Assembly: GCF_003019035.1 (NCBI RefSeq)
Contig: NZ_CP027447.1
Reading direction: 5' to 3' (one strand)
Length of the DNA: 64,000 bases
Origin: Escherichia coli
GTDB lineage: Bacteria; Pseudomonadota; Gammaproteobacteria; Enterobacterales; Enterobacteriaceae
The translations under genes and the position numbers were made by a program. Numbering within the stretch: the first letter of the stretch is position 1; each line of letters begins with the position of its first letter. This document shows, in pieces, positions 17,154 through 19,046 of the stretch. Under the pieces are notes generated by a model. It worked only from the letters and a program-made list of their open reading frames with translations. It was not told the origin of the DNA and searched no databases.

Positions 17154-18010
17154 ATGGCTATCGAAATCAAAGTACCGGACATCGGGGCTGATGAAGTTGA
17201 AATCACCGAGATCCTGGTCAAAGTGGGCGACAAAGTTGAAGCCGAACAGTCGCTGATCACCGTAGAAGGCGACAAAGCCTCTATGGAAGTTCCGTCTCCG
17301 CAGGCGGGTATCGTTAAAGAGATCAAAGTCTCTGTTGGCGATAAAACCCAGACCGGCGCACTGATTATGATTTTCGATTCCGCCGACGGTGCAGCAGACG
17401 CTGCACCTGCTCAGGCAGAAGAGAAGAAAGAAGCAGCTCCGGCAGCAGCACCAGCGGCTGCAGCGGCAAAAGACGTTAACGTTCCGGATATCGGCAGCGA
17501 CGAAGTTGAAGTGACCGAAATCCTGGTGAAAGTTGGCGATAAAGTTGAAGCTGAACAGTCGCTGATCACCGTAGAAGGCGACAAGGCTTCTATGGAAGTT
17601 CCGGCTCCGTTTGCTGGCACCGTGAAAGAGATCAAAGTGAACGTGGGTGATAAAGTGTCTACCGGCTCGCTGATTATGGTCTTCGAAGTCGCGGGTGAAG
17701 CAGGCGCGGCAGCTCCGGCGGCTAAACAGGAAGCGGCTCCGGCAGCGGCCCCTGCACCAGCGGCTGGCGTGAAAGAAGTTAACGTTCCGGATATCGGCGG
17801 TGACGAAGTTGAAGTGACCGAAGTGATGGTGAAAGTGGGCGACAAAGTTGCCGCTGAACAGTCACTGATCACCGTAGAAGGCGATAAAGCGTCTATGGAA
17901 GTCCCGGCTCCGTTTGCAGGCGTCGTGAAGGAACTGAAAGTCAACGTTGGCGATAAAGTGAAAACTGGCTCGCTGATTATGATCTTCGAAGTTGAAGGCG
18001 CAGCGCCTGC
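17154..18010 (+). repeat. Intragenic triplicated ~300-bp direct repeat encoding the three lipoyl domains of aceF
   Basis: Three near-identical segments starting near 17154, 17466 and 17769. Confidence 0.85.
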
Positions 18011-19046
18011 GGCAGCTCCTGCGAAACAGGAAGCGGCAGCGCCGGCTCCGGCAGCAAAAGCTGAAGCTCCAGCAGCAGCTCCGGCTGCGAAAGCCGAAGG
18101 CAAATCTGAATTTGCTGAAAACGACGCTTACGTTCACGCGACTCCGCTGATCCGCCGTCTGGCACGCGAATTTGGCGTTAACCTGGCGAAAGTGAAGGGC
18201 ACTGGCCGTAAAGGTCGTATCCTGCGCGAAGACGTTCAGGCTTACGTGAAAGACGCCATCAAACGTGCAGAAGCGGCTCCGGCGGCGACTGGCGGCGGTA
18301 TCCCGGGCATGCTGCCGTGGCCGAAGGTGGACTTCAGCAAGTTTGGTGAAATCGAAGAAGTGGAACTGGGCCGTATCCAGAAAATTTCTGGTGCGAACCT
18401 GAGCCGTAACTGGGTGATGATCCCGCATGTTACTCACTTCGACAAAACCGATATCACCGAGCTGGAAGCGTTCCGTAAACAGCAGAACGAAGAAGCGGCG
18501 AAACGTAAGCTGGATGTGAAGATAACCCCAGTTGTCTTCATCATGAAAGCCGTTGCTGCAGCTCTTGAGCAGATGCCTCGCTTCAACAGTTCGCTGTCGG
18601 AAGACGGTCAGCGTCTGACCCTGAAGAAATACATCAACATCGGTGTGGCGGTGGATACCCCGAACGGTCTGGTTGTTCCGGTATTCAAAGACGTCAACAA
18701 GAAAGGCATCATCGAGCTGTCTCGCGAGCTGATGACTATTTCTAAGAAAGCGCGTGACGGTAAGCTGACTGCGGGCGAAATGCAGGGCGGTTGCTTCACC
18801 ATCTCCAGCATCGGCGGCCTGGGTACTACCCACTTCGCGCCGATTGTGAACGCGCCGGAAGTGGCTATCCTCGGCGTTTCCAAGTCCGCGATGGAGCCGG
18901 TGTGGAATGGTAAAGAGTTCGTGCCGCGTCTGATGCTGCCGATTTCTCTCTCCTTCGACCACCGCGTGATCGACGGTGCTGATGGTGCCCGTTTCATTAC
19001 CATCATTAACAACACGCTGTCTGACATTCGCCGTCTGGTGATGTAA
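17154..19046 (+). CDS. aceF: Dihydrolipoamide acetyltransferase E2 (three lipoyl domains)
   Basis: 630-aa ORF; three copies of ...[11 protein letters not shown]... lipoyl-lysine motif separated by Ala/Pro-rich linkers; catalytic DHRVIDG near C-terminus. Confidence 0.97.

Follow-up and report, generated by a model that had tools for sequence, protein, structure and literature searches.

The analyzed window, a stretch of 64,000 nucleotides of Escherichia coli DNA, holds an open reading frame (ORF) at 17154–19046 on the plus strand that, according to the ORF list and its translation, encodes 630 aa. Judged from that translation, from the Pfam, NCBIfam and PDB matches of its product and from the RefSeq annotation, it is aceF, the gene for the E2p subunit (dihydrolipoyllysine-residue acetyltransferase) of the pyruvate dehydrogenase complex. 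The protein scored 1101.7 bits against the NCBIfam equivalog model NF008814 (cut-off 722) and 1040.5 bits against TIGR01348 (cut-off 552.1), and matched PDB 7b9k, the native E. coli E2p, across residues 1–630 (E = 0). An earlier sequence-only reading had already named the gene aceF and its product E2p, an identity now confirmed by Pfam, NF008814, the RefSeq annotation, PDB entries 7b9k and 1qjo and the literature (PMC8421416, PMC6270654), and nothing contradicting it was found in the analyses run. At the DNA level, aceF was 100% identical to that of E. coli SCU-301 and 98.3% identical to that of MG1655, and a match was present in 5,424 of 5,426 complete E. coli genomes. The 64-kb window as a whole differed from the SCU-301 chromosome (NZ_CP051751.1) by three bases only, at 24828, 45641 and 63139, and so derives from SCU-301 or from a strain nearly clonal with it.

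The gene is organized in the operon order pdhR-aceE-aceF-lpdA, with the E1p gene (aceE) upstream and the E3 gene (lpdA) downstream, and the RefSeq annotation places aroP, pdhR, aceE, aceF, lpdA, yacH and acnB at the locus. The aceE stop codon TAA (17137–17139) was read just before a putative ribosome-binding site, GAGG, on the plus strand (17140–17143), which lies 10 nt 5′ of the aceF ATG. Consensus scans picked up a GC-rich palindromic hairpin just 3′ of the aceF stop codon (19054–19073, unstranded) and a promoter-like site ahead of lpdA (19141–19169). An Rfam search over the window detected only known small RNAs, all outside aceF, i.e. tp2 (103 bits) at 14360–14473 on the minus strand, antisense between pdhR and aceE in their intergenic region, and, near the secA-mutT end of the window, STnc40 (79 bits) at 2536–2605 (+) and naRNA4/CssrE (61 bits, just over the gathering threshold) at 3009–3085 (+), each belonging to a known family. 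Two ORFs run antisense to the gene, at 17411–18103 (230 aa) and 17862–19091 (409 aa). Both frames are long and open, as would be wanted of coding sequences, but neither matched Pfam, RefSeq annotates nothing there, and antisense frames free of stops are to be expected across from coding sequence that, like this one, is GC-rich and GCN-rich. That they encode something is therefore close to inconceivable, and, having neither a Pfam hit nor an annotation, they were treated as mechanical.

The Pfam domains of AceF are ordered as PF00364 (Biotin_lipoyl) three times, then PF02817 (E3_binding) and then PF00198 (2-oxoacid_dh). PF00364 matched three stretches of the protein (E = 1.6e-67), and a motif search returned three occurrences of the lipoyl-lysine in a DKA motif, one per 76-aa core, namely K41, K144 and K245, in agreement with the three lipoyl domains recognized in the sequence-only reading. 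By Pfam, motif search and alignment, and all on the plus strand, lipoyl domain 1 (L1) covers aa 3–78 (17160–17387, K41 codon at 17274–17276), L2 covers aa 106–181 (17469–17696, K144 codon at 17583–17585) and L3 covers aa 207–282 (17772–17999, K245 codon at 17886–17888); in the PDB search L3 matched the NMR structure 1qjo, that of the innermost lipoyl domain. Each domain is followed by an Ala/Pro-rich linker, as had also been described, with 64–72% Ala+Pro and with the 13-residue string quoted at the time standing at aa 94–106. Linker 1 has 27 aa with 70% Ala+Pro (aa 79–105, 17388–17468), linker 2 has 25 aa with 72% (aa 182–206, 17697–17771), and linker 3, the longest of the three, has 44 aa with 64% (aa 283–326, 18000–18131), again all on the plus strand. 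A 13-nt stretch, GCACCAGCGGCTG, occurs on this strand first in linker 1 (17448–17460) and a second time in linker 2 (17754–17766). The range originally assigned to the repeat, 17154–18110, ends at codon 319 inside linker 3, which reaches to ~18131, so that it was accurate to within ~20 bases. Further downstream on the plus strand are the peripheral-subunit (E3/E1) binding domain at aa 327–362 (18132–18239; PF02817, E = 1.9e-16), with matches to PDB 4qoy and 8oqj, and the catalytic acetyltransferase core at aa 399–629 (18348–19040; PF00198, E = 2.5e-80), which also matched PDB 4n72, a catalytic domain. The DHRxxDG catalytic motif is located within aa 601–611, with the H603 codon at 18960–18962. 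Given its homology and near-identity to the protein of K-12, which has been studied biochemically (PMC8421416), all three lysines would be lipoylated and the core would be active as an acetyltransferase.

At the DNA level the lipoyl region is a tandem repeat with a period of 303–309 bp, occupying the first ~980 bases of aceF. Tandem Repeats Finder reported it at 17175–18037 with a period of 303, 2.8 copies, 79% matches and a score of 985, and a direct-repeat search yielded three 300-nt copies with start-to-start spacings of 309 and 303 nt, which verified the three ~300-bp direct repeats proposed from the letters. The DNA identities of the 76-aa cores were 77% (L1/L2), 76% (L1/L3) and 85% (L2/L3), compared with 25.8 ± 2.8% and a maximum of 36% in a control of 1000 shuffles, and the corresponding protein identities were 78%, 74% and 87%. 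The dS values between the units were 0.81, 0.85 and 0.51, with dN/dS of 0.17–0.21; such a high dS at a dN/dS of ~0.2 indicates an old duplication under purifying selection. An exact-run comparison found 32 nt as the longest perfect run common to two units (L1/L2, at 17244–17275 and again at 17553–17584 on the plus strand), and the other exact runs were no longer than 21 nt (21, 21 and 20 nt).

Units so alike could also be kept alike by ongoing gene conversion, which would make the repeat recombinationally active. The likeness of L2 and L3 (85% nt, 87% aa) does exceed that of either unit to L1, and a 23-aa block is identical in the two; however, purifying selection acting around the hairpin that bears the lipoyl-lysine accounts for the identical protein block, the synonymous divergence between the units is high (dS 0.51–0.85), and the shared exact runs never exceed 32 nt. 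In addition, L1 orthologues across genera are far nearer to each other than to the paralogous units: the L1 domains of Salmonella, Klebsiella, Enterobacter, Cronobacter, Serratia and Brenneria were 87–96% identical to E. coli L1 but only 74–82% identical to E. coli L2 or L3. This places the split of L1 from L2/L3 before the divergence of these six genera and indicates that the units have not been homogenized. Thus, for L1 versus L2/L3, concerted evolution was rejected on the high dS and on the closeness of the same-position domain across genera, and ongoing conversion as the force behind the likeness of the units is considered very improbable.

Under a second rival reading, the repeat would be a hot spot at which natural populations are polymorphic for copy number, and this bears directly on the earlier suggestion that such repeats are substrates for recombinational copy-number change. 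For the complete E. coli genomes, a whole-repeat query does not discriminate, since off-register pieces get joined, and it was replaced by two junction probes, i.e. junction 1 (L1, linker 1 and L2; 17330–17530) and junction 2 (L2, linker 2 and L3; 17640–17830). With megablast, junction 1 matched in 5,421 genomes and was intact and single-copy in all of them, and junction 2 was intact and single-copy in 5,413 of the 5,415 genomes matched; with sensitive blastn, 9 of 5,423 genomes matched only a paralogous junction, at 60–80% identity. About 0.2% or fewer of the 5,423 complete genomes are hence without an intact junction 2 and at most two are without junction 1, and the junction probes revealed no duplicated junction or extra lipoyl copy among the 5,423, all of which speaks against a hot spot. 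An apparent insertion at junction 2 in strain 112 (H143), where two pieces spanned 392 bp, was dismissed as a piece-joining artefact, its aceF having the normal 1893 bp. Across more than 5,400 complete E. coli genomes, the number of lipoyl domains is essentially constant, at three.

Efficient RecA-dependent exchange wants perfect identity of roughly 25 nt or more, and the 32-nt run shared by L1 and L2 is the only one above ~25 nt between the units. With heavy synonymous divergence and so little perfect homology, the copy number would be expected to be very stable, and a shortage of perfect homology for RecA-type exchange may explain the stability observed; selection against shorter alleles predicts the same census.

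On the other side, favoring the hot-spot reading, deletion alleles do exist. Strain DSM 103263 (NZ_CP192200.1) has an aceF of 1587 bp (2207–3793 of the locus examined) encoding 528 aa with two lipoyl domains, in which a clean 306-bp deletion has taken out L2 with its breakpoint inside the 13-nt sequence common to linkers 1 and 2. Among the complete E. coli genomes inspected, it was the sole clean two-domain allele. Strain 463 (NZ_CP183105.1) carries a putative aceF allele of 1701 bp (3001–4701 of the locus examined) with a 192-bp in-frame but out-of-register deletion, which joins the KVN of L2 to the VGDKV of L3 at a 5-nt GTGGG; the breakpoints are homologous to 17643 and 17835 of the window, and an internal quasi-repeat of the domain (VGDKV) was used. 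The C-terminal half of L2 is there fused to the N-terminal half of L3, giving a ~1.5-domain chimera with two lipoyl lysines. A smaller change was observed in strain LR-24, in which 12 bp of linker 3 are missing at the CCTGCG...CCTGCG 12-bp repeat (18006–18023 on the plus strand of the window). The breakpoints of these deletions are at microhomologies of 13, 5 and 6 nt, and the two domain-deletion alleles inspected, those of DSM 103263 and strain 463, arose at 5–13-nt microhomologies and not by long homologous exchange.

Sequence divergence at intact copy number was also encountered, with 31 complete-genome records being just 80–90% identical at junction 1 by megablast. Strain AB_24_S34 has a full-length but mosaic aceF (2325–4217 of the locus examined) with a divergent patch at CDS nt 100–500, homologous to ~17250–17650 of the window; 40 of its 63 differences fall within CDS nt 101–500. 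An L3-to-L2 conversion was tried as the source of the patch and rejected, because the L2 changes match L3 in just 7 of 21 cases and L1 in 9. The L1 changes and the L1 tail with linker 1 match Klebsiella sequence, which, together with the few L2 changes matching L3, favors import over conversion, so the comparison suggests that the patch was likelier imported from another genus than produced by intragenic conversion.

A wider collection of 5.8 billion proteins was searched with the C-terminal 316 aa of AceF, the catalytic half, and the best 120 matches were listed. Among the matches listed were many AceF proteins of 495–553 aa with an intact N-terminus and two lipoyl motifs, dozens of them distinct, from the enteric bacteria E. 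coli, Shigella, Salmonella, Klebsiella, Enterobacter and Cronobacter, and these count, together with the two deletion alleles, in favor of a hot spot. The listed E. coli and Shigella cases mostly delete the stretch from linker 2 to linker 3, and a few are in-register L2/L3 hybrids. However, the best 120 matches are a non-random sample in which no protein exceeds 553 aa and the 630-aa form does not occur at all, so that they are unusable for frequencies, and most of the short proteins listed are singletons from draft assemblies, which could be misassemblies across the repeat. One Shigella flexneri two-lipoyl AceF of 525 aa recurred unchanged on 7 contigs, which belong to at least three assemblies (GCA_013860655.1, GCA_000241995.1 and GCA_052987685.1), and this recurrence again counts for polymorphism; the protein may represent either a genuine allele of a lineage or an assembly error that is reproduced. 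This allele (gene at 3001–4578 of the loci examined) is composed of an L2/L3 hybrid domain plus a 4-aa deletion in linker 3; the crossover points differ in further 525-aa entries from S. flexneri.

Weighing the census of complete genomes against these variants, we regard a hot spot in natural populations as unlikely. A weaker proposal fares better, although we hold it tentatively and at somewhat below even odds, namely that lipoyl number is polymorphic in wild enteric bacteria at low frequency but recurrently, the two-domain alleles being independent and formed mostly by microhomology deletion in the Ala/Pro linkers, with some of them, such as the 525-aa S. flexneri allele, possibly fixed in a lineage. 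If such recurrent polymorphism were true, bacteria in nature would not strictly need all three domains. Of the earlier claim of a substrate for recombinational copy-number change, what survives is that it is right in principle and that deletion alleles exist; they are very rare in complete genomes, the two inspected come from microhomology rather than long exchange, and no expansion was seen, so that the claim holds only weakly and the locus is in practice very stable. In the rare contractions inspected, the breakpoints fall at microhomologies within linkers or within domains and not in the long repeat homology, which cautions against treating the repeat as unstable as well as against trusting short aceF calls in draft assemblies.

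Altogether, our reading of the 5′ half of aceF, to which we assign a probability of about 0.98, is an ancient triplication with diverged units, a stable copy number and microhomology deletions. According to this reading, 17154–18131 would have originated by in-frame tandem triplication of a ~100-codon unit, providing three lipoyl domains per E2p chain. Each domain would present its lipoyl-lysine in a DKA β-turn and be carried on extended, flexible Ala/Pro linkers, with the subunit-binding domain and then the catalytic core following, and the rare natural deletions inspected would have originated at short microhomologies. The lipoylated domains serve as swinging arms, being reductively acetylated by E1p (AceE), handing their acetyl on to CoA within the E2p core and being re-oxidized by E3 (Lpd), so that a core of 24 subunits (a 24-mer) has 72 such arms. 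With its triple lipoyl domain, E. coli E2p has served since the 1980s as a textbook case of the modular swinging-arm multienzyme. The triple domain is thus already known and not new, and its description as a well-known feature of E. coli E2p in the sequence-only reading accords with the literature (PMC8421416, PMC6270654). Beyond correct annotation the triple repeat of aceF matters little, and the population figure, a copy number nearly fixed at three across more than 5,400 complete genomes, is the one modestly useful addition.

Each chain has three lipoyl domains and each core 72 (PMC8421416), and these link the active sites of E1p, E2p and E3 as covalent swinging arms (PMC8421416, PMC6270654). 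The Ala-Pro linkers are 20–30 residues long, extended and flexible, with the innermost one holding the lipoyl domains away from the core; complexes have also been engineered to contain one or two lipoyl domains (PMC6270654). Guest et al. 1985, as cited in PMC5013485 and PMC8421416, reported one lipoyl domain to be enough in vitro, and natural loss of one or two lipoyl domains is described in Serratia symbiotica (PMC5013485). Across organisms the number of lipoyl domains varies from one to three (PMC8421416, PMC6270654).

Compared with known systems, the gene is closest to E. coli K-12 aceF, whose product (7b9k, 4n72 and 1qjo) has the same 630 aa, the same L1-L2-L3-PSBD-catalytic architecture and the same lipoyl lysines and which lies in the same operon; the differences from K-12 AceF are allelic only, exemplified by D367 here versus E in three other E. 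coli alleles compared. The E2p proteins that carry one or two lipoyl domains, like the reduced AceF of Serratia symbiotica, share the same domain types and swinging-arm chemistry (PMC8421416, PMC6270654, PMC5013485). The E2p proteins of other organisms differ in lipoyl number, and E. coli has the maximum reported, three. A more distant relative within E. coli is SucB, the E2o of 2-oxoglutarate dehydrogenase. Like AceF it contains a lipoyl domain and a PSBD, and its catalytic core is homologous; the NCBIfam sucB models hit AceF at 325–350 bits, under their curated cut-offs. SucB is specific for succinyl groups, and its lipoyl domain is single.
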